A stretch of DNA of 64,000 nt. Origin: Methanobacteriota archaeon (lineage in GTDB: Archaea; Thermoplasmatota; Thermoplasmata; SG8-5; JAGLSY01). The stretch covers positions 320,001-384,000 of the forward strand of contig JAEHCO010000001.1 in the NCBI GenBank assembly GCA_020697715.1. The letters run 5' to 3'. Made by a program: the position numbers and the translations under genes. Below the pieces are notes generated by a model. It saw nothing but the letters and a program-made list of their open reading frames with translations. It ran no database searches and had not been told where the DNA came from. This document shows positions 11,358-29,633 of the stretch, one piece after another. Position 1 is the first letter of the stretch; each line of letters opens with the position of its first letter.

Positions 11358-11409
11358 ATCTTTATATTCAGCAATTTGATATGTTATATTATGATCATTA
11401 TTTTGTAAT

Positions 11410-12546: not shown

Positions 12547-12553
12547 CTTGAAC

Positions 12554-12606: not shown

Positions 12607-12671
12607 GATTCCTCCATTATCATTACGGAATCTGAAAGGATTCTCATTGATATAAAACTGCTGGCCATGGC

Positions 12672-13304
12672 TTACGAGAAGGGGAACACTACAAAAGCGA
12701 TCAGATCCCAGAAGGCATGGCTGATGATATTCACCCACAGATTCTTGTAATAATGATATAACAAGGCCCAGAATAACCCTGCGGAAAAAGCGGCCAGAAG
12801 GAGCATCGGGTTTCCCGATGCTAAATGAACACCAGCATAGGCCAACACACCGAATAACACACCCAATCTGCCATAATGCCTGACAAATGTCTTCTGCAGA
12901 TATCCTCTCCAGAATATCTCCTCACCTGGACCGATGATGAACAGGAGGAGGAAGGCGATCATTCGGGGATCCATATTGTTCCCGAAGCCGTATATTCCTC
13001 CTATACCCGCCTTGCCAAATGATATGAAATGATTGGCTAGATCATTCCCAATCATGAAGATGAAGTAGAGGAAGACACCAGAAAGTAGTCCCAGGGCTAT
13101 GATGTAAGGTAGCTGTTCCTTTGAAATAGCCAGCTGCCTTCTGATATCATCATTTCTGAAGAAAAAGGCCAATGACGTTAGCACCAGGGCCGTGATGGCC
13201 ATCTGTCCCCAGAAATGAAAGAAAATACCGCCAAATATCAATGAGAATCCCACGGCTGCCACGAGAAGGGAAAATAAAGCCTTGTTAAATTGGTCTTTGT
13301 TCAT
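12672..13304 (-). CDS. CPBP (Abi/CAAX protease II-like) intramembrane metalloprotease
   Basis: EEIFWRG, GVH and SHAFWD motifs; multiple TM helices; start MNKDQ 1 nt after the menA stop. Confidence 0.85.
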   Translation of the reverse strand: MNKDQFNKALFSLLVAAVGFSLIFGGIFFHFWGQMAITALVLTSLAFFFRNDDIRRQLAISKEQLPYIIALGLLSGVFLYFIFMIGNDLANHFISFGKAGIGGIYGFGNNMDPRMIAFLLLFIIGPGEEIFWRGYLQKTFVRHYGRLGVLFGVLAYAGVHLASGNPMLLLAAFSAGLFWALLYHYYKNLWVNIISHAFWDLIAFVVFPFS

Positions 13305-13305
13305 A

Positions 13306-14259
13306 TCACAGCATCTCGGTGATGTAAGGGGACACGAAAAGTCCAATGGTCAGGAGTATGCCGAACTTCATCTGCATCTGGGCCGTGACGCCATCAAGCA
13401 TCATGAACTTCTGCATATCGTCCTCCTTCTTGAACTTCGCAAGTTTATAGGCTGTTGGGAAGGCCAGGAAAACTATTAGGGCCAACATAGGTGCTGGAGC
13501 CATGAGGTCCAGACCCGGTATGAGACCGAGCACAACATACGAGCAAACAAGAAGGAATGGTACCAGCATGAGAGCTTTGTAGTATTTGGCAGATCCTCCA
13601 TGACCGAGCTTGGAGGCCACGGTCACGCAACCCTTCTCGGTATCTGTTTCGATATCATGCCAGTTATTCGAATGAAGTATTCCAACAGTGTAAAATACCA
13701 GTGGTATGCTCCATAATATAGGCAATATGCTGAAGGTCTGTGTTTGAACCCAAAATGTCCCGAACACAGGAAGCATACCATAGAGGAAAAAGAAGCTCAT
13801 GTCCCCCAGTCCGATATATTTCAGGGAGAAACCTGGTGTCGTGTACAGAAGGGTAAGTGCGATGCCTATTAGGCATATGAATAGGATCATCCAGCCTATG
13901 ACAAATACTAGGTAAATACCAATGGCAAAACCTACGGTCAAAAATACCATGGCAGCTCTTTTCACCTGTTCAGGCGTGAGCCAGCCACGAACAACAGCCC
14001 CACTTACAGGCAGTACCATGGTGTCAACCCCATTCTTGAAGTCATATACATCATTGAGCAGGTTGGCGGCAGTGTGCACGCACACCACACCGGCCAGGGT
14101 CATTATGAAATGTAGCCAGTTGATGTCAAAACCAGCATAATGAGTGAGAGCCAGCCCCAATACCACCGCAGACACTGAAGCCGTGTAGGCAAAGGGTCTA
14201 ACTGCTGTTATCCATATCTTCATTTTACTTGATGGTATCTCGTTCTCTGATCCTGACAT
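13306..14259 (-). CDS. menA: UbiA-family prenyltransferase, MenA-like (DHNA polyprenyltransferase)
   Basis: W...RP N-terminus, NLLNDVYDFKNGVD, LKYIGLGD, NNWHDIETD. Confidence 0.75.
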   Translation of the reverse strand: MSGSENEIPSSKMKIWITAVRPFAYTASVSAVVLGLALTHYAGFDINWLHFIMTLAGVVCVHTAANLLNDVYDFKNGVDTMVLPVSGAVVRGWLTPEQVKRAAMVFLTVGFAIGIYLVFVIGWMILFICLIGIALTLLYTTPGFSLKYIGLGDMSFFFLYGMLPVFGTFWVQTQTFSILPILWSIPLVFYTVGILHSNNWHDIETDTEKGCVTVASKLGHGGSAKYYKALMLVPFLLVCSYVVLGLIPGLDLMAPAPMLALIVFLAFPTAYKLAKFKKEDDMQKFMMLDGVTAQMQMKFGILLTIGLFVSPYITEML

Positions 14260-14376
14260 TCAATTCACCTCAGATACACACCCAAAATATGCTCTATGAT
14301 AAATAAGTGATTGTTAGGATAAGATTATTATTATCCGAGTTCATAACCCATGATATATATTATGTAAGGTGAGAAG

Positions 14377-14691
14377 ATGGAAAAAGATCAAGGATATGAA
14401 AAAGTCATCACGGAATATTATGGGGAAGAGCAGGTCGTGTCATTGATAATGCTAAAGATAGACACACAGCAATCGGAAGCAATTGCCAGACGGGTTTCAG
14501 GATATGAGATCGTTGAGGATCTGTTCATGGTCACTGGCGAGGTGGATCTCATCCTCAAAGCGAGATTTGAGAACTACACTGCCATGAAATCATTCGTCCT
14601 GGATAAATTGGCCACGATACAGGGTATAAAGGATACGAAGACCATGATGGTGGTCACTGCTTTCAAAGAAGGTGGGAAGCTACAGGCCTGA
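14377..14691 (+). CDS. stand-alone Lrp/AsnC ligand-binding (RAM) domain protein
   Basis: VTGEVDLILK...IQGIKDTKT pattern; no HTH. Confidence 0.85.
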   Translation: MEKDQGYEKVITEYYGEEQVVSLIMLKIDTQQSEAIARRVSGYEIVEDLFMVTGEVDLILKARFENYTAMKSFVLDKLATIQGIKDTKTMMVVTAFKEGGKLQA

Positions 14692-14720
14692 CGGCTAAAT
14701 TGGTGGACTGGGTACACTCA

Positions 14721-16172
14721 CTAATTACTGATCAATACACTACTATTAGCTACAGGGCTTGCATTGCCACTAGCATCTATGGCCACAATATCATAATAAA
14801 ATCTCCCAGCAATTGAGAACGTTCTATCAATGGACCAGCTATCACCACTGGTGTGGGTGAGATGTGTTACAGTTGTGGATCCCACGAATTTTATGGTCAC
14901 AGAACTCACACCCACTATATCGGACACGGAGGCAGTGAAATAAACAGTCTTGTTCACAGCCTGAGAGACTGGTGAAGCACCAAAGCTAGATATCACCGGA
15001 GCCGTAGTGTCCTGAATCTTGAAAGTAGAAATACTTGAAGTTTCCCAGTTCCCGGATGTGTCTTCAGCAGAGAAGACATATGAGTATGAGCCAGGAGTGA
15101 TCAAATCAATATTGAATGACCATTCATCAGATCCTATATTGGCCATGACATAATTGTTTATGACAGCATCTGGGGTGGTGATATTGATATGAACACTTTT
15201 GACCTCGGCATTATCTGAAGCACCTACATAGAATATGGCACTGTCCCCACTCTCTAAAATATCTGTGTTTATCCGAGCATTGTACAATACTGGAGGTTGA
15301 GAATCTTTGATATTGAATGTCTGCCAATCCGTGAAAACTATGCGACCAAAAACATCCTGAGCCCATATCTTGTACGAGTGATCGCCAATTATCGTGCAGT
15401 TTATCTCATTATAATACTCAGTTCCTGATCCCTGTGACATGGTGATAGTGTTCTTATCACCATCAGGATCCTCAATAGAATAGAATACACGATTTATATG
15501 ATCCCCGCCAACATCGACAGTGATATTCACATCATTATTGACCTCCTGGGGATTGGGATCGCTCGTCGCATTGCTGATACTTGGAGCTTTACTATCTCCA
15601 TATATCAATTGCTTGCCCCCATCATCAATACCAGAATCATATATCGTGTCAGTGAACATGAAGACGAATACCTTGTAGTGTTCATTAGGCAAGCCCTCAT
15701 CTATTAATCGGCTGGCAATTCCAAAATCCTGATTGGAATATACTGTCAGTTTTTTGACATACGAATTTGCTGGATCATCAAGAAGTTTCTCCAACTCCAC
15801 ATTTGTCTCTGTACCATTCATCTGTAATGGCTGGATATTTGTTCCAAACCGCAGAGAAATATCGATATCTCCAGAAAGGGATGTGCCTCTGATATAACTT
15901 TCATAGAATTCGAATTTATAGATATCACCACCCACTTTGCCAGGCAGGTAAAATGCCCGATAGGAATAATATCTATCAAAGGTGAAATTGACATTCATTT
16001 CTCCATTGATCCCGTCCAATCTTTTGATGACACGATCCACCTCCTGAGTGGCGCTTTGGAGCATGTTCTCATCTATGGTGTCCACTTGTATCTGGTAGAA
16101 ACCCACGATGAAAGACATGACCAATATCGAGGTGATGAGCCAGGTCATCTTGGAAAGGACGAAATCCAGCAT
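14721..16172 (-). CDS. minor pilin-like membrane-anchored protein with ~3 Ig-like repeats
   Basis: N-terminal hydrophobic helix; repeats starting DxxxP and ending AxDxxGN; last gene of the pilus operon (TGATG overlap). Confidence 0.65.
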   Translation of the reverse strand: MLDFVLSKMTWLITSILVMSFIVGFYQIQVDTIDENMLQSATQEVDRVIKRLDGINGEMNVNFTFDRYYSYRAFYLPGKVGGDIYKFEFYESYIRGTSLSGDIDISLRFGTNIQPLQMNGTETNVELEKLLDDPANSYVKKLTVYSNQDFGIASRLIDEGLPNEHYKVFVFMFTDTIYDSGIDDGGKQLIYGDSKAPSISNATSDPNPQEVNNDVNITVDVGGDHINRVFYSIEDPDGDKNTITMSQGSGTEYYNEINCTIIGDHSYKIWAQDVFGRIVFTDWQTFNIKDSQPPVLYNARINTDILESGDSAIFYVGASDNAEVKSVHINITTPDAVINNYVMANIGSDEWSFNIDLITPGSYSYVFSAEDTSGNWETSSISTFKIQDTTAPVISSFGASPVSQAVNKTVYFTASVSDIVGVSSVTIKFVGSTTVTHLTHTSGDSWSIDRTFSIAGRFYYDIVAIDASGNASPVANSSVLISN

Positions 16173-17593
16173 CAGTCGTCACCTATTTTCTTACCGTACA
16201 GGTCACCGAAGCTGGAGTTATTTTCTTTGGACTGACTGCTATCTTTCTCATCTGCAGATCGTATTTTCTCCACTCTGGGAAACAATGTCGCATCTAGCCC
16301 TGTATGGAGGGTCATTCGTGGTCTCACGCATACCAATTCCATCTTCCGGGTCTTATCATCCATAATGACAGCCAGACCTCGTCTGAACTCCATTGTAGAG
16401 ACCAGTTTATCAAAATCCTTTGTTCCGGATGTGTATGACTGCTTCGCCATCTTCAAAGCCTCTATATCTGGTGCGGCAGTGACATTGTGGGCGATGATCA
16501 GATCAGCTTGCTTTATCGCACTCTGATGAAGTGCGGAAGGTTCCTGAGTGGCCAAGATCAATGAAAGACCAGGATGTCGTCCTAATTTGATCCAATCTAT
16601 CAAGGCATCGGTGGCGATGGTCTTGCCTTTGTTCGGGAGGAAAAGGTGGGCCTCATCTATCATCATGTAAACCAAAGGATGTTCTTTGGTGATATCCTTG
16701 GCCACTTCTTCATCTATGAGATTTGCCTCGGCCTGCATCTCCAATGTGGTGTACAATGTCCTAGCCCGCATGAGATGACTGGCTATGATGGAGACTATGA
16801 GATTACGTATATCGAAACCACCCAGGCGTCCCAGATAGCTTATGTCCAATATAGTCATACGACCGGCTTTCACAATGTCGGAAAAGGGTGTTCCTTCCTT
16901 ATCGAACACTCCAAGATCCTCGATCATCTGGATCGTTCCTTTCAGACTATCATTGGTTCCTTCACCCTCGAATATTTTCTGGTTATCTATCTCTCTGTAA
17001 ATGTCCTCATAGCCGTAGGGGTCGTTCTTGTGCTGAAGGGTTCTTATCACCTTTATCAAAAGAGTGCCAACAGGGTCAGTTATAGTAAGACCGAATAGAT
17101 CCAACCAGTCCTGAACACTTATCTCATGCAATGGAAGCTGGAGAACCTGATCATAGAGAACATCATGTCCTGACTTTTCCAATTCCGCGATAGCTAACTT
17201 GGGCATGAGGATGTGGACATAATCACCCATTCCCTTTGGTGTTAGACCATTAAAGCTCTTCAAACGGTCTACTTCGTAAGCATTGGAATTGGCAGTTTTC
17301 AGACTGTGAAAGACACTCATTGTATCGACTATCAGGACAGAGAGTCGATCTTTCTGTTCTGCTTCCATCATGCCAAATGACTCGGCCATGACGCCCAATG
17401 TGTACGATTTGCCAGTACCTCGCTTGCCCATGACGAGCATACAATGAGGAAAGGCCAGATCCAATTGGACCTCACCCATCTCTTCATACCGTCCAGCTGG
17501 GTAGCTGACTATCTTACCCAAGTAGCCGCATCCTCTGATACCGTATTTGTCTATGTCCTTGTCCGTTCTTCCAAATATGACCCTTTGTGACAT
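16172..17593 (-). CDS. HerA/VirB4-like (DUF87) P-loop ATPase
   Basis: Walker A GKRGTGKS, Walker B MMIDEAH, GRHPG, ATQEP sensor. Confidence 0.88.
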   Translation of the reverse strand: MSQRVIFGRTDKDIDKYGIRGCGYLGKIVSYPAGRYEEMGEVQLDLAFPHCMLVMGKRGTGKSYTLGVMAESFGMMEAEQKDRLSVLIVDTMSVFHSLKTANSNAYEVDRLKSFNGLTPKGMGDYVHILMPKLAIAELEKSGHDVLYDQVLQLPLHEISVQDWLDLFGLTITDPVGTLLIKVIRTLQHKNDPYGYEDIYREIDNQKIFEGEGTNDSLKGTIQMIEDLGVFDKEGTPFSDIVKAGRMTILDISYLGRLGGFDIRNLIVSIIASHLMRARTLYTTLEMQAEANLIDEEVAKDITKEHPLVYMMIDEAHLFLPNKGKTIATDALIDWIKLGRHPGLSLILATQEPSALHQSAIKQADLIIAHNVTAAPDIEALKMAKQSYTSGTKDFDKLVSTMEFRRGLAVIMDDKTRKMELVCVRPRMTLHTGLDATLFPRVEKIRSADEKDSSQSKENNSSFGDLYGKKIGDD

Positions 17594-17596
17594 TCT

Positions 17597-19663
17597 CTAA
17601 CCTCCCATTAATGATTGACTCAATATCGTGACTATGGAGAAAGTGATGGCAGCAACTGGCAGAGATATTCCTATTGAATACTTCGCCTCTATCGTGTCTA
17701 TGCCATTTTGAATACCCACTGCGAAATATCCTGTTATACCTACTACCATTAGCAAATATACACCTATTATGAGCACGAAATCAGAGGGATCCATCATGGA
17801 TGATGTGAAAGGAAGATCCTGAAATTGATTGTACAGCATGAAGTAAAGTCCAATGGTTATACCCATAACTATTGGAGCGAAGAGAATGGCAGTTGTCTTC
17901 ATCATGTCAACAACTGAACTGAGAGAGTTCTTTATCTCCTGATCCACCTGTATCATATCCCTCAGATAATTGGATATGGTGACTATGGTCTGGCCTGCTG
18001 TGGACGCATCCTTCTGGACAGCCTCTACAACTGTTTCCATGGTGGCTCTTATTGTCCTCGAAGGCACATCTTTCAGAACACCAATGTTCCTATTGAACAG
18101 TATCTCATTAAGTGGTGCCCTTGTCATCTTCAGATTATATGATATGGTGGCGAAAAGCTCGGCCACCATTGTGCCTTTAAGTGTATCGGCCACTTTCTGA
18201 AAAGCGGATTCCAATGGCTCCCCCTCTGAAATACGACTACCCAATTGGAACAATGCATCCGGAAATTCTGCCTCGAGCTTCTTGGTCTCATCCCTCTTCT
18301 TCTTCTGGTATCTGGTCGTGGTAACGAGATAGAAAGATGCTCCCACTGATATTCCCACAACTAAAGGGGTTACACCGAACATATCGATGCCCACCTTCTC
18401 ATATACCACGGGTAAACCAAATGCTCCAATACATATGGTGATAAGCAGGGCGGCGAACCCTATGGTGCGCTTTTGTTTGGTATCGAAAGGTGATTTAATA
18501 TCAGGCGGACTCGTGGTTCCAGGTCTATTACCAAGAACATAATATGAATAAACAAGAGTGATGACCGGAAATACCACGTCCAGCAGAAGTACGATGGGCA
18601 TGATATTGTATTCTTCCACGCTATCGCCAGCCTCCAGAGTGTTTTCCATCCCAGTTGCATCGAAATTCATCATATCTCCCATGTTCATGGAGAGCATGGG
18701 AAGCATGGAGCCCATTATCAGTGGAAGCAATACTCCTAGGGCGAAGACAATCATGGTTGGGCCACTCAAAGAAGCGGCGTAGCCTTCCATGCGGGTCTTG
18801 GTTCCGGTGAGGATTATATCATTTGCTTTGTCCAGTGTTCGTTTTAGTCCTTCCTCTGTCCTTTCCAATGTAGCGGTCCTGATAGCGTACAAAGCTCTAC
18901 GAAAATCCTCATTCCACTGCCCCCATCTTGATGCAAAGTCAACAAGTCCATCCTCTATATTGTTGTACTTTCTCATCATGAGATCCCATGTGAGTTTTTT
19001 AAATTCAGATGCTAAAGGCTCATCCGTGTGATTGCCTGTGAACATAATGGCCTTATCTAGTGTTGGGGAGAGCCTCATTGACATCACAAGATAATTAATG
19101 GCCTCGGGAGCTCTTCCAAGACTCTGTATCCTGACCCTTTGAGCAAGGTTTTCAGGATATGTGGCAAAGAATCCCAGAACTATCAAAGGAAATATGAAGA
19201 CAAAGGGGATGGCGTACATCAAAGAAGTTGCTCCATATATCATGAATATAGGTATTGTGGCCACTGCATTTATGGCAAATACGATCATGGTCATGATCTG
19301 GCTGACCGCCATAACATCGAACTCATCGATGTCCCAACTCAAGAAATCGACAGCTGCTCTAAATTTCTCTTGTTTGAAGACCGCCTCGGCTTTTTCCATC
19401 TTCTTCTTGGCTTCCTTATACTTAGATTCCGCTCTTCTGAACTCCCTGGTAGTATCATCACCACGGATCCTGGCCTCATTCACCTTCTCAAAGGCTTCAT
19501 TAGCCGCGACATCAGCAGTCTCGAAGGCAGTACGGGTCTCCTCGCGCTTCCTCTCTTTGTCCGCTTCAGATGGTCCAGCAGATCTCAAAATTTTTCTTGA
19601 TAATGATATATACCATACGCCGTAAGGTGGCAGATCCTTTTCCAGTCCCTTATTATCATGCAT
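17597..19663 (-). CDS. type II/IV secretion platform membrane protein (TadC/GspF-like, duplicated domain)
   Basis: Two GspF-like halves (APEAINYLVMSMR; EFPDALFQLG), many TM helices, follows the ATPase. Start MHDNK overlaps the ATPase stop. Confidence 0.85.
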   Translation of the reverse strand: MHDNKGLEKDLPPYGVWYISLSRKILRSAGPSEADKERKREETRTAFETADVAANEAFEKVNEARIRGDDTTREFRRAESKYKEAKKKMEKAEAVFKQEKFRAAVDFLSWDIDEFDVMAVSQIMTMIVFAINAVATIPIFMIYGATSLMYAIPFVFIFPLIVLGFFATYPENLAQRVRIQSLGRAPEAINYLVMSMRLSPTLDKAIMFTGNHTDEPLASEFKKLTWDLMMRKYNNIEDGLVDFASRWGQWNEDFRRALYAIRTATLERTEEGLKRTLDKANDIILTGTKTRMEGYAASLSGPTMIVFALGVLLPLIMGSMLPMLSMNMGDMMNFDATGMENTLEAGDSVEEYNIMPIVLLLDVVFPVITLVYSYYVLGNRPGTTSPPDIKSPFDTKQKRTIGFAALLITICIGAFGLPVVYEKVGIDMFGVTPLVVGISVGASFYLVTTTRYQKKKRDETKKLEAEFPDALFQLGSRISEGEPLESAFQKVADTLKGTMVAELFATISYNLKMTRAPLNEILFNRNIGVLKDVPSRTIRATMETVVEAVQKDASTAGQTIVTISNYLRDMIQVDQEIKNSLSSVVDMMKTTAILFAPIVMGITIGLYFMLYNQFQDLPFTSSMMDPSDFVLIIGVYLLMVVGITGYFAVGIQNGIDTIEAKYSIGISLPVAAITFSIVTILSQSLMGG

Positions 19664-21767
19664 ACTTGGCACCTTCCAGGAACCATTTTCTCCATTGTTC
19701 CAGGATCTTATTGAAATCAAGATCGCCATCACTTATGGCATTCTCACGAAGTGCCCAGTATTTGTTATTCATGCGCGAGACCCATTCGATCTTCAGGAGC
19801 TGTGGTTTATCATGCTGTCTCGCATATTCAACCGCATCCAATCGATATCTAGCTCTGACCCTGATATCATTCAAAGCATCCTCCATGGATATGCCCCATT
19901 TCCTGGCGATCTCCCCGATACGCTCGGATTTGTAATTGAAGACATCGGTCTCCATTAATAGATCATTATCACTATCATACATCATCAGGTCATTGAACTC
20001 TCCAGGAACTTCAGATGTCTTGACTGTTTCAGCTATCTGGGTACATCTTCTAAGCAGTTTTTGAGAGCCTTTGGATTGCGTCAAGGTCTGAACCACTATG
20101 ATATCAGTGGCCATGAAGGATGTGGCTGGAATGCCCATGTCACTGGTCGCCCTTTCGAAGGTGGATTTTGCAGAATCCGCATGAAATGTTCCCATGACCG
20201 ATGATCCAGCAGTTCCCGTTCTCATGGCCTCGTATAGAGTTCTAGCCTCCTGGCCTCTTACCTCACCCAATATCAAGGCAGACTCACCCAGTCTGAGAGA
20301 TGTTCTCAAGGCATCATCAGCCGTCATCTCGCCCTTTCCACCAAGGGTGGACTGTACGAACATCCTCTGAACCTTATAGCCCAATTTCTGCATCTCAGGC
20401 ACTGGCAATTCTAAAGTATCTTCGATGGTCAGTATCCTCTGTATTGATGGGAATTCGAGAAGTAAGCTACCCAGAAGTGAAGATTTTCCAGAACCCCTAC
20501 TTCCTGATACCAGCATGGTGCAATGGCCCTCTATAAGGAATGAAAGAAGACCAGCTGAAAGAGGAGATACAGTTCCATTATCAATGAGCTTCAACATCGT
20601 CCAGGGATCGGTCGAGTGTCTGCGGAAAGCGATACCTATGCCATCTGGACTCAATGGCTTTCCTATGGCAGTCACCCTGGTCTGGTGTTGGACAAGATCT
20701 GTTTCCAGCACTGGCATGGCCTCGGAGAAAGGTCTGCCACTCTCATACCTGAACCTGGATACCATACTATCCACGTCCTCATTGCTGAGTATCACATTGG
20801 TAACAAGCTTATCATAGAGATCCTTGTGTGAAAGGCCTCCTATACTGGCATGAATTGGGTTCTTCGGAGCGGGGGCATCGATGTAGATATCCTGCATATA
20901 TGGGTCTTCAAGAAAATATTCAAAAAGCCCGAGTCCGACTGTGTACCTTGCGAGAACGGAAGTGAGATCATCTAGAACCTTCATTTCTTCTTCGGGAGTA
21001 TTGCCTATCTTGATAGAATGCTTATTAGCTATCTGATAGAGTATCTTCTTTCCAAAGGTATCCACATATAGCCTAGCTTGGCCAGGCCTGTCCAATTGGA
21101 TATGCCTTGGACGGTTCCTCATTAATTCTATCTTAGCAAGGTGAATTAGTTTCATAAGATCCGATGGTAGAGAATATTCCTTGGGTTTGATATGATAATG
21201 AGAGTGGGTGAAATCCTTGATCTGCCAAAGGCTCACGAGAGCATCTCCCACCCAATATTCAAGCACCTTTTCAGAATTCTCCGGGGGTTCGGGTGTCACC
21301 CAGGAATAGGAGAAGCCAGGGCGAAGATCATAGTATTTTTCCATAATAAGGGTCATGGCTCGATGAACACGTTTTGCATCTACCGCATAAGGGCCCTTGT
21401 TCTCGAGAGAGATAATAACATCATTTAGAGATGTTATCTTCTCTGTCTTATTTTCTTCACTGGCTTTGGTTATAGTAGGTTCTTCCTTGATGATCACAGG
21501 GGCAGGAGATTCGTACACTTCCTCGGGTTCTGGAACTTCTTCCTCGATGATCACAGGGGCAGGAGATTCGTACACTTCCTCGGGTTCTGGAACTTCTTCC
21601 TCGATGATCACAGGAACAGGAGATTCGTCTAATTCCTCAAGCTCTGGAATTTCCACCTCTTCGATATTATCGGTTGAAATGATCTTCACACCTTTCTTTT
21701 TCGTGTCTTTGTCATCTGCTTCGGTGTTTTCCGATCCCTTATCTTCCTGACCTATAATTTTCACCAT
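19656..21767 (-). CDS. type IV pilus/secretion assembly ATPase (VirB11/TadA/CpaF family)
   Basis: GSRGSGKS, TIEDTLEL (Asp box), LRLGESALILGEVRG, GTFHA (His box). Confidence 0.92.
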   Translation of the reverse strand: MVKIIGQEDKGSENTEADDKDTKKKGVKIISTDNIEEVEIPELEELDESPVPVIIEEEVPEPEEVYESPAPVIIEEEVPEPEEVYESPAPVIIKEEPTITKASEENKTEKITSLNDVIISLENKGPYAVDAKRVHRAMTLIMEKYYDLRPGFSYSWVTPEPPENSEKVLEYWVGDALVSLWQIKDFTHSHYHIKPKEYSLPSDLMKLIHLAKIELMRNRPRHIQLDRPGQARLYVDTFGKKILYQIANKHSIKIGNTPEEEMKVLDDLTSVLARYTVGLGLFEYFLEDPYMQDIYIDAPAPKNPIHASIGGLSHKDLYDKLVTNVILSNEDVDSMVSRFRYESGRPFSEAMPVLETDLVQHQTRVTAIGKPLSPDGIGIAFRRHSTDPWTMLKLIDNGTVSPLSAGLLSFLIEGHCTMLVSGSRGSGKSSLLGSLLLEFPSIQRILTIEDTLELPVPEMQKLGYKVQRMFVQSTLGGKGEMTADDALRTSLRLGESALILGEVRGQEARTLYEAMRTGTAGSSVMGTFHADSAKSTFERATSDMGIPATSFMATDIIVVQTLTQSKGSQKLLRRCTQIAETVKTSEVPGEFNDLMMYDSDNDLLMETDVFNYKSERIGEIARKWGISMEDALNDIRVRARYRLDAVEYARQHDKPQLLKIEWVSRMNNKYWALRENAISDGDLDFNKILEQWRKWFLEGAKYA
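21489..21628. repeat. 57-bp coding tandem repeat (~2.5 copies; ESPAPVIIEEEVPEPEEVY)
   Basis: gatgatcacagg recurs at 21489, 21546 and 21603; the first two units are identical. Confidence 0.95.
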
Positions 21768-21778
21768 TCATTTCACCC

Positions 21779-22396
21779 CTATATGACCACACTGAACCCT
21801 TCAAAATACAGGAAGGCTCTGAACTCTTCTGTTAGATTGAATACATAGACCATGGCCTCTTCCGTTGTCTTGACACATACCTGGCACTCGGCCGTTCTTG
21901 TTTGTTTGACGATCTTGGAAGAGGTGAGGAACTCACTATAGAAGACCTCGATGTCCTCCAATATCATCTTTTTCATACGCCGAAAGATGACTTGGGGGTT
22001 GGCCTTACAACTATTACATGTGGCTCTTCTCTTATCCTTCGCACTCTGGGCTTTGATATCACTGAAGTATTCTCTTGGAGGGTTCCGTAGGGAAAGATTA
22101 TCGATCTCACTAGAGAGGTCTATCAATGTCTTCAGCATCTTCATAGATGGGCCAGAGTATCGCAATTCCGCATAATCACTCAATACCACATTGTCCGCAT
22201 TGTAATTGGCTCCAAGGGCTGTTAATACGCCTTTAAGGCAATGTTTATTTTTAAGATCGGCATCCACTGGACATTCCTTACAATCAAATACCAGACGCAT
22301 CTCCACCGTGGATGATTCAACATCATGATTACAGAATGCTTCCACTTTCTTTTCACCCATTGTCGATCCTTTCGCTTCAGCTGCTTTCTTTCCCAT
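21779..22396 (-). CDS. Cys-rich cytoplasmic protein of the pilus operon (putative Zn-binding)
   Basis: Three CxxC motifs (DCKEC, TCNSC, ECQVC); 11 nt upstream of the ATPase start. Confidence 0.7.
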   Translation of the reverse strand: MGKKAAEAKGSTMGEKKVEAFCNHDVESSTVEMRLVFDCKECPVDADLKNKHCLKGVLTALGANYNADNVVLSDYAELRYSGPSMKMLKTLIDLSSEIDNLSLRNPPREYFSDIKAQSAKDKRRATCNSCKANPQVIFRRMKKMILEDIEVFYSEFLTSSKIVKQTRTAECQVCVKTTEEAMVYVFNLTEEFRAFLYFEGFSVVI

Positions 22397-22413
22397 AACT
22401 ATCTCTCCAGATA

Positions 22414-25400
22414 CTATTCCTCATTCCTGTCGCCCCTTCGCTTCTTGATATAGAGTACGGCCAATATGACCGCGACCAATAGCAATATGCCCACCATGGA
22501 CACAGCGTATATCGCGCTCGTGGTCCAAACACTGTCATCACCCGCATCATCATCACTTGCCCAGGTTCCGAAATCCAGATCTTCAGACGCTTGGTTATTG
22601 TCCTCATCCTTCTCGATTATGCGATCCATCGGATCCACAGTGGCGTACACTGTTTTTGTTCCGATCGGAGCCGCCCACTCATAATACAAGAGACTATAGG
22701 AAGATTCATCGATCCTTGTGATATTGAAAGAATGGAGTAATGTGTCATCACCCGCATCATTGCTTTCATAGAGATCGACCCCCACATCTGTCAAATTGCC
22801 GTAACCTATATTAGACACATTGGTCGTGATATTCAGTATCCCATTATCATGTTCAGCAAGTATCATGTCGATGGTGAGATCCTTGGAAGTGAGAACTGCC
22901 AGATGTACCGTCTTTTTATTTTCAGCCTCCTCATGCTCCATTATATTATCAGTTGGGAATGCGACAGCGTATATCTGATAATTGCCAATTGGTGCCTGCC
23001 AGTCTATAGAAACTGTGTCGATTTCTCCATGTTCCAATGATATGAACTTTCCCTCTATGAAATCGTCGAAGGTGAAGAACTTCACGAAAACAGAGTCAGA
23101 ATCGGCCTTTCCATCATTTTGTATCGTGGCTGAAACTGTCGCTTTCTCACCTTCATTTATGAGACCGCTGGATATAGAAAGGCTGGAAATACATATATCT
23201 GGAACAAGAGACACTCTCCTGAATGCGAGATTGTTATCGAGGATAAGATCGCTGACATTTAGGAAAACAAAGAGTTCGTGGGCTCCCAGATCCGCAGTCC
23301 AGTAGGCGACCACGGTCGCATTTTCTCCCATATCCACGGAGATTATGTACTTGGTGGCAAATAATTCTCCGTCTTCGGTAGGGTCGCCATCATAGAATTC
23401 CACCTGCACATTGGAGGCGGAAGTATAACCCACGTTCTTGATCATGGCGGTTATGGCCACTGCCTCACCTTGATTTGGGGTATCCGAACTTAGGTCGATA
23501 TTATCGAAGGTGATCGAAAGATCTACTGGACATGTGATGGTGCAATTAAGCCTATTATTATTCTTGACAATTTCAGTAATGGTATTATCATGATCAGCAA
23601 TGGCGAACACATTGTGTATACCACCTGGCACTTCCCAATCTATGGAAACATTCACCATACCAAAACGACTGATGGAAGATACAGGAACGCTCTCGATCAA
23701 TGTACCTCCCGCCTCGGGTTCTCCATCATAGAAGCTCACATTGAAGGCTTGTGTGACGAGGTCCCCTGTGTTTTTTATAATGGCTTCTAACTGGACGGTC
23801 TCGCCTTCCTTGGCGATGATATCCGAGTGATCTCCATTAACAGAAAATGAACTGACCTCCATATCGGGTCTGAAGTAGATCTTGATCGACACCTGTTCCT
23901 CCGTGGTTCTATCATTAGGAGTTGTCAGATTGTTGTAAGTGTAGACTATCGTGTTCCTTTCTATCAATTCAGTATCACAATTGAAATCAAGGAAATGCGC
24001 ATTTGTAGCGGCCACAAACCTTGGCTTTGTCCAGACCCTATCACCCATTAGATCTATAGTGCAATAATAAATGCCTGAATAGGTCACATTGTCAATATCT
24101 ATTATCTTATTGTTCTTCCACACTACGGCGGCCAAACCATCCTGGTTCACCACCGCCTGAGGAAGTTGCACTGGCCTGGTAGTGTAGTTCACCAACTTGA
24201 TAGTTGACCAGGTCTCGGTGGCAGTGTCCCAGGTGCAGTATCTTATATGACTGTCGAATTCCCAATCCTGGGCATGCCAGACAAGGATGATATTGTCACC
24301 ATTTGCCGCAAGAGATGTTGATTCCACACTGAGATTGTCATTCGTGATATATTTGTAAGCTGTCCAATTGGTGCCATTAAAGATGGAATAGACTATCTGC
24401 TGGTCATCCGTGGTATTGAATAGCTCATCGCCATCTCTCGTATGGATGGACATAATGTCACCATTAGGTAGATTGACCATCTTATTATCATAATGGAAAC
24501 TGCCAGATATGAACATGAGTGTAGGAATACTCCAATTGGTGCCATTCCATAAGGAGGATCTTGTGCGTTGATCTCCAGTGGACATCATATCACCATCTGT
24601 GTCATATAGCCAAGACAGAGCGATATTGTCATCAGAGAGCAGTATCGCGCTAGGCTGCATATCTGATGCCACGGCAGGCTTAGTATAAACTATATCTGGA
24701 CCGGATATCATAACATCGTTCTCATCTATTATAGCATATTTCAACACAGCACCATTCATGAAGTTCGTGAGACCGAATGTGGTTGAGGTGAGATCCTGAT
24801 TAGGCACTGTTTCGATCCAGAATACATAAGCCGATCCAGTTTTATTGTATATGACTTCAGGAGTGGTCTCTATTACTGCATTATTGGTCAAGGTTAGGGT
24901 GGTAGAACCAGATGGGCTATCGATCTTAGCCTGGATCTCGTAGTTTGGATTGTGAAAGTCATTGTTAAGGTCCTTACTTGTCACGACTATGGTCTTACCC
25001 TCGAAAGTCGCACTTGCCGGACCTCGGGGGAAGTTTATAGTACCATCCTTATCTGCCATCGCATCTAGGTCCTGCTCGGGTGGAACATATGGAGGTGGTG
25101 TTTCCGTTGTGCCTTCGAAAACATCAAATTCCCAATGGCCAAGTTGGAAAGTGTCCTCGTAGAAGGTCCAATCTTTCCTCCACCACAGGAATTCTATGTA
25201 AGCCCCAATTTCTGCCATCAGGGACACATCCAGGGCGCCATAACAAACAGGATAGAAGCCACCAGCTGTAGAACCATCGATACCGATGGTCGGAGTGTTG
25301 TAAGTGAATCCTGTTGTCAAAGCAATATTCGGATTTCCAGTTATCCTTCCAAACATACCTCCTCCAGCTATCCCGAAGCTCACTCCTATATTAAATTCGC

Positions 25401-27792
25401 AAGTCAGATACAGGCCAAGACCCAGAGTGAATGTGGCTGTTACCTGACCGAATTTCACACCTGACAAAGTTGCTGATATCATTGCTTCTGTAGCTGCCAC
25501 TGCTGAAAAATCCGCGCTCACATCAACAGATGCCATGACAAATGGAGGGAATATGGGGTATTTGGCACTGAATATCTGCCATTCCTTCATAACCTCAAGG
25601 GACGCATACACCCGGGCCTCGAAACTCACCAGATCCAGTAAACTTGCCGGATTCTCAGCGATGTTCATGACAGTGCCCCAAACTTCTTTCAGGGTTTCGA
25701 AAGTTGCCTGATATTCCTCAACTATCTCTACAATATTGGATATGGAATCTGTGAGTCCACTATAATCCGTCGAGCTATTTCTAGATTGATTCTCGGCCGC
25801 ATTTCTTGTCTCATTGAGTGCATTGAGCAGATCGGCCGCATTATCTGGTTTCAGTACCTTTTTCCACAGTTCACCAACTGATGTTTCCAGAACTGTTCCT
25901 TCATTGATCTTCACATCTTTCAGAAGAGAGCCGAATTGCTTCCAATTTGTCAATAGATATTTCCCTTCTTTGATAAGGTCGAATATCTTGGTCAGATTGA
26001 TCTCAATATCCGGAAATCCCACATTCACAGAAGCTTCAACACCTGCCGTGCCCGTGACCTTCATACCCATGACTGTCGATTCCAGTGTTTTCTCCTTCCC
26101 AAAGGATATCTCACCACCTATGGGTATCTTTAATTCCAATACATACTTCTCAGATTGTTGATTTTCCTGACCACTGACATATGGCGTATCATCTGAAGCT
26201 TCAGCCTTCTTACCATCATTGAGGGTTTGAGGAAGCTCCAGTATCAATGTGAAATAATTCAATTGAGCTTTGACAGGGCCATTTCCTCCAGTAGCATTTC
26301 CCGATGTGCTCGGAGTGAAAGTTCGCTCCTGTGTGCCAGTCTCTCTACTGGTGGTCGCCCTTGTTGGATCGTCGGTGTTCTCCATCCAGCGCGGGGGGAG
26401 TTCCATGTATATCGAGGTCTTGTAAGGATCACTTCCAACACCTGCATTGTCAATCGCGGCTATTGTAAGGTTCGAGGTGCCATTTATTCCGCCCATATCG
26501 ATATAGGTCATGAATAAATCTCCTCTACGAGCTTCTTCCATAAGTATCTGGGTAGGTGGAATAGTGCGCTTGGTCGGATCCAAAGAGAATTCATCTTCAT
26601 TGTACCACATAAGGACCTGCCACACGAAGCCATTCTCATCGGTCGCATTTATGGTGAACTTATTGAATACCTCTATACCTTGAACAAATACACCAATTCC
26701 AGGGTCTGGATCATCATATTCGGCTTCTACTGAATTAACCACTGGAGGGATCTCAATGTGTAGATATTCTCTGAAGTTGTTCTTCCCATCGATCTCATCG
26801 ATATTGTCCCCACCTATCATCTCACTGGTCTCATTTGCCTCATCAACATCATATTCGATATAATCCACCTGGGCGATTATTTTCCTGTTCAGTAATGTTC
26901 TGTCAAATGCATCATCATGGTAAAGGTAATCCACCACCCTCCATGGTTGGTCGGCTGTAACTGATATTTCTCCATCTGGGTCAAGGTCCGTGATGATAAT
27001 TGGTTCACCTATTTGGCGGGTCTCATTTCGATCCATTAGATAATCAATGAATCTGACCCTTATCACTCCATCATCATTACCTATGCCATCTACCCATTTG
27101 GCACCCTCTTCATCAGTGCCCATGGTCCCGATGTTCTTTATGACTGCGGAGACCGAATATCCAGGTGGGACATACTTGGTCATCATCTCCGGCTGATATT
27201 CTGCCCAGGTATCATCATCCACCTCATAAGCATCCTCCAAAGGATTATCTATAACTGAAATAGAGCCCACGTACATATCTGGCATCCTTAATTCGCCTTC
27301 CTGACCTTTGACCCTGACAACGACAAAATCTGTGAAGCCTATCGTCTCTTTCTGGATGACCAATTCCCATTTGTCATATCCATCCAATGTCAAGGCGCTG
27401 TTATCAGGAGAAGTTATCGGGATATTCGGATCAGTGACCACTATATGCTCCCAGGCAGACCCGTATTTGTATGATATTGTGGATTGGTTCATACCTGGAT
27501 GTTCTCCTATCCTGTCCCCAATTATTATTGGCCCTAGATCAGAAAATCTTGAAGCACCCAGATCAAGGGTGACCTCTCTTGTTTCCAATGTTCCCTGGCC
27601 ATATACAAAGCGTATGGCAGTGACCAGTTCATCCATGGCCTCCTGTAGATCATTTTTAGTCTGATTCTGAGCATTGACACTCATACCATGATATGCCGCT
27701 GGCACAATGAATCCCACAGCCACCATTATGACCAATAATTTCATTGGCATCTCTTCTAAACCTCTCCAGTCTCCACCGATACGTCTTCCCAT
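22414..27792 (-). CDS. giant pilin-adhesin fusion: class III-like signal peptide, beta-rich region, CARDB repeats, C-terminal TM anchor
   Basis: DWRG|LEEMP followed by a hydrophobic helix; CARDB-type PD...IKNxG...E...NN repeats; TM plus KKRR tail. Confidence 0.8.
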   Translation of the reverse strand: MGRRIGGDWRGLEEMPMKLLVIMVAVGFIVPAAYHGMSVNAQNQTKNDLQEAMDELVTAIRFVYGQGTLETREVTLDLGASRFSDLGPIIIGDRIGEHPGMNQSTISYKYGSAWEHIVVTDPNIPITSPDNSALTLDGYDKWELVIQKETIGFTDFVVVRVKGQEGELRMPDMYVGSISVIDNPLEDAYEVDDDTWAEYQPEMMTKYVPPGYSVSAVIKNIGTMGTDEEGAKWVDGIGNDDGVIRVRFIDYLMDRNETRQIGEPIIITDLDPDGEISVTADQPWRVVDYLYHDDAFDRTLLNRKIIAQVDYIEYDVDEANETSEMIGGDNIDEIDGKNNFREYLHIEIPPVVNSVEAEYDDPDPGIGVFVQGIEVFNKFTINATDENGFVWQVLMWYNEDEFSLDPTKRTIPPTQILMEEARRGDLFMTYIDMGGINGTSNLTIAAIDNAGVGSDPYKTSIYMELPPRWMENTDDPTRATTSRETGTQERTFTPSTSGNATGGNGPVKAQLNYFTLILELPQTLNDGKKAEASDDTPYVSGQENQQSEKYVLELKIPIGGEISFGKEKTLESTVMGMKVTGTAGVEASVNVGFPDIEINLTKIFDLIKEGKYLLTNWKQFGSLLKDVKINEGTVLETSVGELWKKVLKPDNAADLLNALNETRNAAENQSRNSSTDYSGLTDSISNIVEIVEEYQATFETLKEVWGTVMNIAENPASLLDLVSFEARVYASLEVMKEWQIFSAKYPIFPPFVMASVDVSADFSAVAATEAMISATLSGVKFGQVTATFTLGLGLYLTCEFNIGVSFGIAGGGMFGRITGNPNIALTTGFTYNTPTIGIDGSTAGGFYPVCYGALDVSLMAEIGAYIEFLWWRKDWTFYEDTFQLGHWEFDVFEGTTETPPPYVPPEQDLDAMADKDGTINFPRGPASATFEGKTIVVTSKDLNNDFHNPNYEIQAKIDSPSGSTTLTLTNNAVIETTPEVIYNKTGSAYVFWIETVPNQDLTSTTFGLTNFMNGAVLKYAIIDENDVMISGPDIVYTKPAVASDMQPSAILLSDDNIALSWLYDTDGDMMSTGDQRTRSSLWNGTNWSIPTLMFISGSFHYDNKMVNLPNGDIMSIHTRDGDELFNTTDDQQIVYSIFNGTNWTAYKYITNDNLSVESTSLAANGDNIILVWHAQDWEFDSHIRYCTWDTATETWSTIKLVNYTTRPVQLPQAVVNQDGLAAVVWKNNKIIDIDNVTYSGIYYCTIDLMGDRVWTKPRFVAATNAHFLDFNCDTELIERNTIVYTYNNLTTPNDRTTEEQVSIKIYFRPDMEVSSFSVNGDHSDIIAKEGETVQLEAIIKNTGDLVTQAFNVSFYDGEPEAGGTLIESVPVSSISRFGMVNVSIDWEVPGGIHNVFAIADHDNTITEIVKNNNRLNCTITCPVDLSITFDNIDLSSDTPNQGEAVAITAMIKNVGYTSASNVQVEFYDGDPTEDGELFATKYIISVDMGENATVVAYWTADLGAHELFVFLNVSDLILDNNLAFRRVSLVPDICISSLSISSGLINEGEKATVSATIQNDGKADSDSVFVKFFTFDDFIEGKFISLEHGEIDTVSIDWQAPIGNYQIYAVAFPTDNIMEHEEAENKKTVHLAVLTSKDLTIDMILAEHDNGILNITTNVSNIGYGNLTDVGVDLYESNDAGDDTLLHSFNITRIDESSYSLLYYEWAAPIGTKTVYATVDPMDRIIEKDEDNNQASEDLDFGTWASDDDAGDDSVWTTSAIYAVSMVGILLLVAVILAVLYIKKRRGDRNEE

Positions 27793-27832
27793 TTTATCAT
27801 CTCTCCAATATACTTACTTTGAATCTAATTAC

Positions 27833-28342
27833 TTAATAAACCAATCTCACCTCGACCACCCATGAATACGCAGCCCCATCTCCATCAAGATCACCTTCGA
27901 CCAATTCATCCAGTGTTCTGACCTCCACCATTCGATTTCCCTCTCTGAATTCAAGTACACCTGTCATATTCACCATCGCGATATTGGGATCGGTGATCAT
28001 AAAATATTGCTCCAAACCACCATTGATCCTGTATCTGAAACTCGATAGATTTGACCAAACATCATTGGGGGATCCGCCAATACGCATGTATTCCATACTC
28101 GATGCCACGCCACCAGATAGTTCCAGCTCCACCACTCTCGAGTTCCCGGGACCCATGGAGTACACCTCCCTCACTGCAGACTCAAGATAGCTTAATTGAG
28201 TATCAATAGTCTGCTGGGTCTGCCTTGTGGAATAGACCTCGAGGTAATTCCAAGATATTGGAACCACCATGGCAACGACAATGAACATTATCAGAAGATT
28301 GAGGGGGAATCCCTCCATCCCCCTCCTGTCTAATGGCCTCAT
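27833..28342 (-). CDS. type IV pilin-like protein
   Basis: DRRG|MEGFP followed by a hydrophobic stretch; paralogous to the N-terminus of the downstream giant protein. Confidence 0.75.
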   Translation of the reverse strand: MRPLDRRGMEGFPLNLLIMFIVVAMVVPISWNYLEVYSTRQTQQTIDTQLSYLESAVREVYSMGPGNSRVVELELSGGVASSMEYMRIGGSPNDVWSNLSSFRYRINGGLEQYFMITDPNIAMVNMTGVLEFREGNRMVEVRTLDELVEGDLDGDGAAYSWVVEVRLVY

Positions 28343-28782
28343 TTATTCACTGCAATGCTTTGAGTGACTTGATTTCCGCCGCCTGATACTGTTACTGTGA
28401 TGAAATCCGAGTTAGTGTTTGGGGGCAATACAGGTGAGACATCCACAAAAGTGTATGAACCATCATCGCCTGTTATGGCCTTCATATCTATACCAGCTCC
28501 CTCGATCGTTATCTCACAGCCGCTCATTGTTCCCTTATCATTGTGAGCGATTATCTCTATATCAAAGGTGGTGTTAGCAGTTGAAACATCACTGACCATT
28601 GTCGGTGTGACCTCTATGTAATCTAGAGGCGGTGTCAAAAGAAACATCCACGACAATATAATGCCTATTGCTACAGCTGCAATTACAACCATAATCAACA
28701 GATTCAGTGGTAGTCCAAGCACACCTCTGTCATCTTCCCTCATGCCCTTATGGATACTAATTTTAGTTCTAAGATTAATCAT
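28339..28782 (-). CDS. type IV pilin-like protein (probable major pilin) with Ig-like domain
   Basis: EDDRG|VLGLP followed by a hydrophobic helix; first gene of the operon. Confidence 0.75.
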   Translation of the reverse strand: MINLRTKISIHKGMREDDRGVLGLPLNLLIMVVIAAVAIGIILSWMFLLTPPLDYIEVTPTMVSDVSTANTTFDIEIIAHNDKGTMSGCEITIEGAGIDMKAITGDDGSYTFVDVSPVLPPNTNSDFITVTVSGGGNQVTQSIAVNK

Positions 28783-29078
28783 AATATCACGAAGAAGGAA
28801 CTTGAAGAATGTATATATTTGTTTCGTATAGGTATAAATATTACCAATAATATAGTGTTAATAGTTTACTATTGTTATGTTTATGTTATTCAGTGTCAGT
28901 GTTGCGAGGATTAGGATAGATGTTCTGAGGAAACCTAGCTGAGTGTGGGAGGTGTTGGACACTTCACAATATTGGAACAATAAATAAACCGATACCTAAG
29001 ATAACCCGGGTAAATGTGGATATTACAGCACATGATAATAATTAATTTAAAACTCTCTAATAGCTCTATATTCTTCTT

Positions 29079-29633
29079 CTATTTCGCTATCTTCTCCACC
29101 ATCAGCCAGTACACGAAAAGCTCCATGTCGAACTTTTTATGATCTGGATATTTCTGTCTTATCAATTTCCAGAAATTCTTGCCATGGTTCATCTCCAGCC
29201 GATGCACCACTTCGTGGAATATGACAAATTCAATTAATTCGTCTGGCAGTTTCTTCAGAAGGGTATTTACAGTGAGATTACCACCTGTGTCGCAACTCGC
29301 CCATTTATCATGTAATTTCTTAAATCTTATCTTGTAAAAGTCCACACCCAGCTCGGTGGAATATACTTCCGCAAGCTCCCACACATACTGCCTGAAATTT
29401 TCCTGCGTTCTCTTTTCCAGGGTCTTGGCTTCCGCTTGCTGAAGAGAATATAACACATTGCCATGCACCTTGCTGATCCACGCAAGATGCTTTTTCACGG
29501 CCTCGTCCTGATTAGCGGCCTCTGGAAGTATCAGGGTCATCTGGCCGGAATTGAATTCCAGAACTGGTTCTTTCACCCTGCGCATATCCACCCTGTATTG
29601 ATGGTCTGGCTTGATCTGAATATGAAATACCAT
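29079..29633 (-). CDS. YgjP/DUF45 (M48-like) zinc metallo-hydrolase
   Basis: KWASC, VIFHEVVHRLEMNH...FW. Confidence 0.88.
   Translation of the reverse strand: MVFHIQIKPDHQYRVDMRRVKEPVLEFNSGQMTLILPEAANQDEAVKKHLAWISKVHGNVLYSLQQAEAKTLEKRTQENFRQYVWELAEVYSTELGVDFYKIRFKKLHDKWASCDTGGNLTVNTLLKKLPDELIEFVIFHEVVHRLEMNHGKNFWKLIRQKYPDHKKFDMELFVYWLMVEKIAK

Follow-up and report, generated by a model that had tools for sequence, protein, structure and literature searches.

The window analyzed here is a 64,000-nucleotide stretch of archaeal DNA (GenBank assembly GCA_020697715.1, contig JAEHCO010000001.1, positions 320,001 to 384,000) assigned to the SG8-5 lineage of the Thermoplasmatota, and the subject of this report is one of its genes, g7, which encodes a HerA-fold ATPase in the midst of genes for a type IV pilus-like system. 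Positions 14721-28782 of the window are filled exactly by eight minus-strand open reading frames (ORFs), numbered g1 to g8 in the direction of transcription, and the distances between successive genes are -4, 40, 17, 11, -77, 3 and -1 bp. Because of this tight spacing the eight genes read as one operon. They encode two pilin-like proteins (g1 and g2), a giant surface protein (g3), a Cys-rich domain (g4), an assembly ATPase (g5), a membrane platform (g6), the HerA-fold ATPase (g7) and a further surface protein (g8). An earlier interpretation made from the letters alone (hereafter the sequence-only reading) had described eight tightly coupled genes as an operon of the type IV pilus kind with a HerA-superfamily ATPase among its products, and this description is borne out by the ORF map together with matches to T2SSE, a T2SSF-type platform and DUF87/HerA_C. 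The question raised by the arrangement is what an ATPase of the HerA fold does beside a pilus motor.

The HerA-fold ATPase and its linkage to pilus genes

The g7 gene (16172..17593, minus strand) encodes a soluble P-loop ATPase of 473 aa, with a disordered tail and no transmembrane segment, that matches DUF87 at 34 bits and HerA_C at 36 bits, both above cut-off. An AlphaFold2 model built from a 38-sequence alignment (mean predicted local distance difference test score, pLDDT, 85; predicted template modeling score 0.85) was compared with solved structures using Foldseek. The best matches are to Thermococcus HerA (9x1l, E 8e-17; also 9x1m) and Sulfolobus HerA (4d2i, E 1e-15), and ranks 1-49 among the matches listed are all HerA or HerA-like chains. 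Alignments with HerA structures cover 440-459 columns with template modeling scores of 0.58-0.63 at ~15% identity, and take in both elements of the HerA fold, the N-terminal barrel and the RecA-like core. At the level of sequence profiles, g7 misses the curated HerA equivalogs (HerA_Thermprot, 19.2 bits against a cut-off of 800; helicase_HerA, 14.7 against 970) as well as the models for VirB4 and Ced proteins (CedB, 14.9 bits against 700; CedD, 16.3 against 600; VirB4_plasma, 24.5 against 590). The label 'HerA/VirB4-like' given by the sequence-only reading is therefore half retained: the HerA fold is found and the VirB4 signature is not. Because the Walker A motif (GKRGTGKS), the Walker B residues D313/E314 and a conserved Arg/His set are invariant in the 38 sequences, g7 is presumably a catalytically intact, active ATPase.

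The close family of g7 comprises at least 120 clusters at ≥48% identity. Among 48 long, more distant relatives that were scanned (P0250-P0376), 22 carry inteins, often with a LAGLIDADG domain; the insertion site lies in the region of the Walker A lysine (profile position ~61), and in some there is a second near Walker B (~313). Other fusions in the same set are to DUF835 (6), winged-helix (6), SAP (1), subtilase (2) and papain-like peptidase (1) domains. Named distant relatives come from metagenome-assembled genomes labelled Diapherotrites and Lokiarchaeota/Promethearchaeota.

How general is the association with a pilus? A pattern scan of a species-genome collection returned 319 matching stretches, 308 of which encode a g7 relative, and the best 80 loci were studied; neighborhoods were counted from ORF tables, in which a pilus ATPase and/or platform was scored at a distance of up to four genes from g7. 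The sequence-only reading had made its case depend on synteny of the DUF87 gene in relatives, and g7 does prove syntenic with pilus genes in both Thermoplasmatota and Aenigmatarchaeota, in several independent arrangements. At least five can be distinguished, in which g7 lies co-directional with the motor genes, divergent from them, behind a pilin gene, behind three class III pilin genes (in Aenigmatarchaeota) or before a prepilin peptidase gene. A pilus ATPase and/or platform is near g7 in 13 of the 50 Thermoplasmatota rows, and in 31 only a g1-type pilin gene is found, mostly directly upstream of g7 and amid housekeeping genes. In eight of the 22 Aenigmatarchaeota rows g7 follows as many as three class III pilin genes, whose products have KAQ/KGQ leaders, and in one further locus of this group (L091) the ATPase and platform genes lie 2 kb upstream of g7.

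The same association recurs in a more distant subfamily. When 301 genomes of the phylum were sampled, 74 gave a profile match at E≤1e-60; close g7 orthologues account for 7 of these genomes, and a second subfamily of ~425 aa is present in about 40. In all ten sampled loci of this subfamily (L120-L129) its gene is divergently adjacent to genes for a fused Cys-domain ATPase and a platform, L129 being counted from a profile match 167 bp off the ATPase since its gene is absent from the filtered ORF table. A Peptidase_A24 gene (46 and 52 bits) directly follows the g7 relative in two loci.

Genomes with the pilin-adjacent form of g7 also encode the motor, as g5 orthologues of 45-49% identity were found elsewhere in the genome in five of five cases. 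The conserved flanking genes of this form (RtcB, Hef, MBL-fold, DAC-domain and PurL/PurS) were considered as partners of g7 and rejected as housekeeping; where the flanks change, the g1+g7 pair alone persists. The converse notion, that g1 is specific to g7, was likewise rejected, as the g1 family (at ≥83 bits) occurs in 30 of 41 related genomes, g7-lacking ones included. In the g7 tree, rooted at its midpoint, Thermoplasmatota and Aenigmatarchaeota separate with support of 100/100, and the pilin-adjacent form makes up one clade of 32 rows (97/96). The motor-adjacent form is found in several lineages that lie outside this clade, within a polytomy, and for this reason the midpoint-rooted tree suggests that the motor-linked state is the older of the two.

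A side observation concerns a cytoplasmic family of ~175 aa whose genes, often in two or three tandem copies, lie after g7 in 15 related loci, with both layouts represented (for example L052:11360-11881 and L079:11560-12105) and are absent from the window. Among 18 members, DUF2378 is matched in 14 and V4R in 4 (E≤0.1), and these matches point to a small-molecule-binding sensor domain; the family profile found no match among the PDB sequences.

Does the repeated linkage reflect a working relationship, or could g7 be a HerA-like ATPase for repair or defense that happens to lie among pilus genes? The best single library match of g7, to PADLOC mad8 (E 1.1e-15), and matches to several defense HerA models would suit such a passenger. 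However, no other defense component is present, and a defense-system interpretation of the mad8 and HerA matches was rejected for that reason. A repair role fares no better: the sole NurA match in the genome lies on contig C28 and not on the pilus contig, neither the locus nor the Pfam-scanned neighbor genes of related loci contain NurA, no Mre11 or Rad50 was found near g7, and a separate 572-aa ORF weakly similar to g7 is located elsewhere in the genome (C11:432113-433114). Moreover, pilus genes accompany g7 in two phyla, in its two subfamilies and in five or more arrangements, which chance neighborhood does not explain. We regard a passenger role as highly improbable and consider that g7 very probably works with the pilus.

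Motor, filament and surrounding genes

The assembly ATPase g5 (19656..21767, minus strand; 703 aa) scores 87.4 bits on T2SSE, for which the cut-off is 24.9 bits, and has a C-terminal extension. The sequence-only reading had called it VirB11-type, a name that we replace by FlaI/TadA/GspE-type: among NCBIfam models FlaI scores best (138 bits), ahead of TadA (126) and VirB11 (81), none of them at the equivalog cut-off, and its relatives in PDB sequences are Archaeoglobus GspE (2oap, E 2.8e-34), CpaF (9e-28) and FlaI (2.6e-27). The first ~130 residues form an acidic repeat linker. Within the gene, a tandem repeat at window positions 21480-21659 (57-bp offset, 90% identity across 123 bp) encodes the acidic motif EEVPEPEEVYESPAPVII, and the linker varies between the two genomic copies of the locus described below.

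Directly before g5 lies g4 (21779..22396, minus strand), which encodes 205 aa with 8 Cys and no transmembrane segment; it has no family match in Pfam and NCBIfam scans and no usable match in a wider protein search. The 'Cys-rich protein' of the sequence-only reading can be identified more closely. Fused Cys-domain ATPases of 698-853 aa occur in L034, L035, L037, L063, L079, L091 and all ten of the L120-L129 loci, and it is owing to these fused proteins that g4 clusters together with g5. By this comparison g4 is the Cys-rich domain from the N-terminus of that ATPase, split off here as a gene of its own.

The third motor component, g6 (17597..19732, minus strand; 711 aa), is assigned as a FlaJ/TadC-type membrane platform encoded by a single gene. 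It narrowly misses T2SSF (22.8 bits, cut-off 25.2) and scores 16.9 bits on the ArlJ model. With its own score marginal, the assignment follows architecture and orthology: g6 has about nine hydrophobic segments in three clusters with two soluble domains between, a platform-like membrane-segment layout, and its orthologue in L091 scores 28 bits on T2SSF, above cut-off. The true start of g6 is probably Met24 at 19663, in which case the overlap with g5 would be 8 bp.

As the sequence-only reading had noted, the cluster contains no prepilin peptidase gene. A genome search found a FlaK-like one at G000:C11:316482-317450, ~17 kb from the cluster and ~2.5 kb ahead of the start of the window, which encodes a 322-aa membrane protein. 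This protein exceeds the Arc_PepC_II cut-off of 29.9 with a score of 52.7 bits and matches the FlaK model at E 6e-13; on Peptidase_A24 its 20.7 bits stay below cut-off. The sequence is divergent, with 'SDLRTR' in the region of the first aspartate and 'GGADAK' where GxGD is expected. No second candidate of the A24 type turned up in the genome search, and a putative prepilin peptidase is accordingly present at the level of the genome and not of the cluster. Two more T2SSE-type ATPase genes, 3 kb apart, lie on the same contig as the pilus operon (G000:C11:631009-635572), and the genome therefore holds at least one additional type IV filament locus.

Turning to the candidate filament subunits, g1 (28339..28782, minus strand) encodes a small pilin-like protein of 147 aa with a charged leader, one hydrophobic helix and one beta-sandwich. 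Its AlphaFold2 model (pLDDT 80.7) has a helix at residues 26-48 and seven strands, and an alignment of 37 family members shows a conserved motif, G-x-L-G/E-G-L-P-L, in which G23, L24 and P25 are invariant. The second pilin-like protein, g2 (27833..28342, minus strand; 169 aa), begins with RRGMEGFPLNLLIM and matches DUF7311 at 23.9 bits, under the 27-bit cut-off. Weak reciprocal profile matches link g2 to class III pilins of the Aenigmatarchaeota: g2 is found by the model of the pilin cluster cl29 (E 7e-4), and a cl29 member by the model of the g2 family (E 8e-6). These Aenigmatarchaeota pilins have classical KAQ/KGQ class III leaders.

The operon also encodes two large surface proteins. The first, g3 (22414..27792, minus strand), is a giant of 1792 aa made up of a pilin-like head, a long middle region, four CARDB stretches (111.9 bits in all) and a C-terminal membrane anchor, with hydrophobic segments at residues 12-30 and 1764-1782. 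Its head is homologous to g2 (29.6% identity across 125 aa), and g1, g2 and the head of g3 have a motif in common, consisting of a charged leader, R-G-x3-[GE]-[LFM]-P-[LM]-x-L-L and then the hydrophobic helix. The second, g8 (14721..16172, minus strand; 483 aa), has an N-terminal hydrophobic helix without a leader, followed by at least three immunoglobulin (Ig)-like repeats whose Pfam matches are all below cut-off. It is the most variable gene of the locus, with 65% identity to its counterpart in the second copy as compared with 84-92% for the other seven. Judged from these sequences, a role as surface adhesins would suit the CARDB stretches, the Ig-like repeats and the rapid divergence of g8 from one copy to the other.

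The presence of 1792-aa and 483-aa surface proteins in one operon with g7 brings up the idea of an export motor, in which g7 would power the delivery of adhesins of the g3 or g8 type to the pilus or the envelope. VirB4 and VirD4, which are pumping ATPases of the same superfamily, also move proteins. However, most g7 loci, namely those of the pilin-adjacent type and of the second subfamily, have no giant protein alongside, and the association of g7 therefore follows pilins and motor, not adhesins. For this reason we rate the export motor as very improbable.

A second copy of the whole locus is present in the same assembly on a 17.7-kb contig (G000:C3, positions 1-17671; L022), which carries all eight genes in the same order and aligns with window positions 14896-28877 over 14,072 bp, 82% of the nucleotides being identical. 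Protein identities between the copies are 92% for g5-g7 and 84-89% for g1-g4. The second copy may be a genuine paralogue of the locus, or its contig may come from a relative that was co-assembled. Its flanks differ from those of the window, with a 598-aa vWA/zinc-ribbon protein and two pilin-like genes on the opposite strand, and these flank genes are homologous to genes that follow g7 in L034, L035 and L037. The same eight genes occur in a genome of another family (G020:C32:1445-15306; L016), with 86-88% amino acid identity for g5-g7. Because g7 identity in other relatives of the same order or class is 47-60%, the sequence comparison suggests either that the entire locus was recently transferred horizontally or that there is a fault in the binning. 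The order g4-g5-g6-g7 is also kept in three further genomes (G027, G022 and G036).

The block is preceded by an AT-rich spacer of 296 bp (28783..29078, minus strand) that contains a TATA-like 'TTTATA', read in the sequence as 'tatttatacc' ~45-55 nt upstream of the g1 ATG, and that is presumed to hold the promoter of the operon. Past the spacer lies the gene of a YgjP-type peptidase (29079-29633), which shares the strand of the operon, and the downstream border is formed by a convergent AsnC-type gene (14377-14691). A mobile-element interpretation was dropped, since integrase families were unmatched among the scanned flanking genes (a tRNA scan was not made); the G+C content is 0.445 for the locus and 0.457 for the contig. 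Beyond the YgjP-type gene and transcribed in the opposite direction to the operon is a gene for a 1528-aa protein (29789-34375, plus strand) with NosD/right-handed beta-helix repeats, a Big_7 domain and a long coiled region, which is a probable further surface protein. On the other side, 1.4 kb downstream of the operon and after a UbiA prenyltransferase gene, lies a gene for a CAAX/Rce1-like intramembrane protease (12672-13346, minus strand). The association of a CAAX protease with a type IV pili-like system is the subject of a passing remark in a Thermoplasmatales genome paper (PMC10354927).

Candidate roles for a second ATPase at the pilus

In the interpretation that we favor, and hold with moderate confidence, the locus gives rise to a type IV pilus of the euryarchaeal kind that most likely serves in adhesion, with the lineage-specific g7 acting as a second motor ring. 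Here g1 and g2 would be the filament subunits, processed by the FlaK-like peptidase encoded elsewhere in the genome, and g3 and g8 would be large, adhesin-like surface proteins with pilin heads. The assembly ATPase would be formed by the split pair g4 and g5, acting on the membrane platform g6. We infer that g7 would form a second cytoplasmic ring at this motor, docked on g5 and/or on the soluble domains of g6, from where it might assist or regulate the extraction and assembly of subunits. Second ATPases of the FlaH/KaiC, MinD and MoxR families are known accessories of archaeal pili (PMC4858521), and N- and C-terminal extensions of pilus ATPases have been proposed as docking sites for accessory proteins (PMC13705601). 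That g7 is a motor-associated ring with an assembly or regulatory function, rather than a pump for DNA or protein or a retraction motor, is the more tentative part of the proposal, to which we give slightly less than even odds.

A docking site was also sought by co-variation. The Cys-rich domain was considered in this capacity and rejected, since a Cys-domain gene precedes the ATPase gene in 7 of 12 g5 loci sampled from g7-lacking genomes.

Several observations weigh against the favored interpretation. With regard to the filament, the leaders of the pilin-like proteins are not canonical class III, none of the window proteins matches the Pfam family Class_IIIsignal, and in Foldseek the g1 model matches generic Ig-like folds only and no solved pilin. 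A search for sequencing runs with g5-g7 listed none, of RNA or of DNA. The linkage itself has exceptions, as neither a pilus motor nor a pilin is encoded within four genes of g7 in 6 of the 50 Thermoplasmatota rows (one of the six is truncated), and some Aenigmatarchaeota rows have no pilus gene near g7. The fusions of distant relatives to winged-helix or SAP domains (7 of the 48 scanned) are no less compatible with a role on nucleic acids than with regulation, and to our knowledge the HerA-family enzymes characterized so far act on DNA.

A further point is that the pilus often does without g7. Orthologues of g5 (E≤1e-60) are present in 28 of 41 related genomes, as compared with 9 of 41 for orthologues of g7 (≥47% identity), and in the 12 sampled g5 loci from g7-lacking genomes a platform is found in 11 and a g7-like gene in none. 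No match to g5 was obtained in two of the nine g7 genomes (G001 and G004); these are fragmented assemblies, and in G004 the contig breaks off within g6. Because the same module of Cys domain, ATPase and platform occurs without g7 in many relatives, g7 is, by these gene inventories, a lineage-specific accessory and not a core part of the pilus.

The fold of g7 invites a different hypothesis, already advanced in the sequence-only reading, in which the locus is a machine for DNA uptake or exchange: the pilus would bring cells or DNA to the surface, and a HerA-like hexamer at the platform would pump DNA across the membrane. One operon would then combine what Sulfolobales split between Ups pili and the Ced importer. 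In favor of this hypothesis, the fold that g7 shares over nearly its full length is that of HerA, a double-stranded DNA translocase, and inteins, which are typical of nucleic-acid enzymes, sit at the Walker sites of nearly half of the distant relatives mentioned above, a set that also includes the winged-helix and SAP fusions. The FtsK-HerA superfamily consists of pumping ATPases (PMC4858521), CedB is VirB4/HerA-like and Ted loci often contain a HerA helicase gene (PMC9905601), and DNA-processing genes are found near the Ups pilus locus (PMC13705601). However, the pilus platform is the only membrane channel candidate present, g7 itself has no membrane segment, and its scores on the CedB, CedD and VirB4 models fall far short of their cut-offs. 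Across the arrangements examined, the conserved neighbors of g7 include no nuclease, DNA-binding protein, Ced/Ted-like gene, CedA/VirB6-like channel or VirB2-like pilin. The sequence-only reading had pointed to ComEC and DprA as genes to look for, and neither was found in the genome (PF03772 and PF02481; 93.8% complete), an absence that weighs little because these families are mostly bacterial. Since the locus contains no nuclease, Ced/VirB6-like part or NurA and the genome search found no ComEC or DprA, the idea is unsupported, and we consider it unlikely, although it is the main rival of the favored interpretation.

A further hypothesis starts from the pilus and not from DNA. Archaea encode no members of the PilT family (PMC4858521), and a HerA-like ring that alternates with g5 at the platform could pull subunits back into the membrane, serving as a motor for retraction or disassembly. 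This would be in keeping with the position of g7 directly after the platform gene in the window (3-bp gap), with its membership in the same ATPase superfamily as the pilus ATPases, and with its being optional for the system, as retraction ATPases are. On the other hand, g7 is far from the PilT/PilB clade, with its listed fold matches confined to HerA and HerA-like chains. PilB/PilT-type ATPases engage the platform through an N-terminal domain, which g7 does not have. A retraction motor is therefore, in our estimate, a distinctly slim prospect. The two hypotheses can be taken together as the proposition that the g7 ring is a substrate pump on the pilus motor, either the DNA-translocating motor of pilus-dependent uptake or exchange or a PilT-independent retraction engine, and in this broader form we consider it rather unlikely.

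Relation to known filaments and significance

The closest known systems are the euryarchaeal pili described as 'clade 2' by Makarova et al. 2016 (PMC4858521) and as 'system 2' by Sivabalasarma & Albers 2026 (PMC13705601). As in these systems, the window locus has extended N- and C-terminal parts of its ATPase, a single-gene platform, several pilins of which some are without a canonical class III motif, and a large adhesin-like protein, and there are multiple loci per genome; the likeness is one of such descriptive traits. Members of this group shown to be adhesion pili include Haloferax PilB3-C3 and Halobacterium pil1 (PMC4858521, PMC13705601). The sequence-only reading had allowed that the locus might turn out to be orthologous to an adhesion pilus already characterized, and no such pilus was found in the excerpted literature. 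The difference lies in the accessory ATPases, which in clade 2/system 2 are of the KaiC/FlaH, MinD/FleN and MoxR types, with no HerA/DUF87 partner mentioned in the excerpts of the two papers.

Among these accessories, ArlH/FlaH of the archaellum serves as the working model for g7, which would take the corresponding place at the pilus motor. It is a KaiC-like ATPase that binds the motor ATPase ArlI/FlaI and is located at the cytoplasmic motor (PMC4858521), and like it g7 is a second soluble RecA-superfamily ATPase encoded in a type IV filament operon. The two differ in that g7 has the HerA fold, with DUF87 and HerA_C matches and no KaiC match, and in that FlaH is a stable component of the archaellum whereas g7 is optional for its pilus type.

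The Ced, Ted and Ups systems resemble the window locus in that an archaeal surface filament is encoded alongside a HerA/VirB4-like ATPase, and an extra HerA gene is often present in Ted loci (PMC9905601). However, Ced (CedA, A1, A2, B) and Ted (TedA, B, C) of the Crenarchaeota go back to type IV secretion systems and have pilins resembling VirB2 together with a channel resembling VirB6, whereas in the window locus the ATPase is FlaI-type, the platform is TadC-type and the pilins consist of an N-terminal helix and a beta-sandwich. Neither a VirB6/CedA-like channel nor a VirB2-like pilin is matched among the eight proteins, of which only g6 is polytopic, although very divergent forms could escape the models. 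Canonical HerA, which acts in HerA-NurA-Mre11-Rad50 repair, has the same overall fold and the same P-loop motifs as g7; in contrast to it, g7 is shorter at 473 aa, misses the equivalog cut-offs and has no NurA, Mre11 or Rad50 gene nearby.

A HerA/DUF87 ATPase as the partner of a type IV pilus is not reported in the main-text excerpts of PMC4858521, PMC4158269, PMC6668835, PMC13705601, PMC10354927 and PMC9905601 or in full-text searches of open-access journals. The HerA-like ATPase recurs as a partner of such pili among uncultured archaea, and this partnership is apparently undescribed. A g7-type partner is encoded in hundreds of the uncultured archaea in the collections searched, from Thermoplasmatota to Aenigmatarchaeota. 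On a modest reading, g7 adds a new accessory module to the models by which archaeal type IV filament systems are detected. It also provides a concrete protein for two questions, namely how a pilus might be controlled or reversed without PilT, and how DNA moves through the membrane in pilus-dependent uptake. Should the g7 ring prove to be a substrate pump or a retraction engine, it would represent a new functional class of pilus ATPase common to Thermoplasmatota and DPANN archaea.

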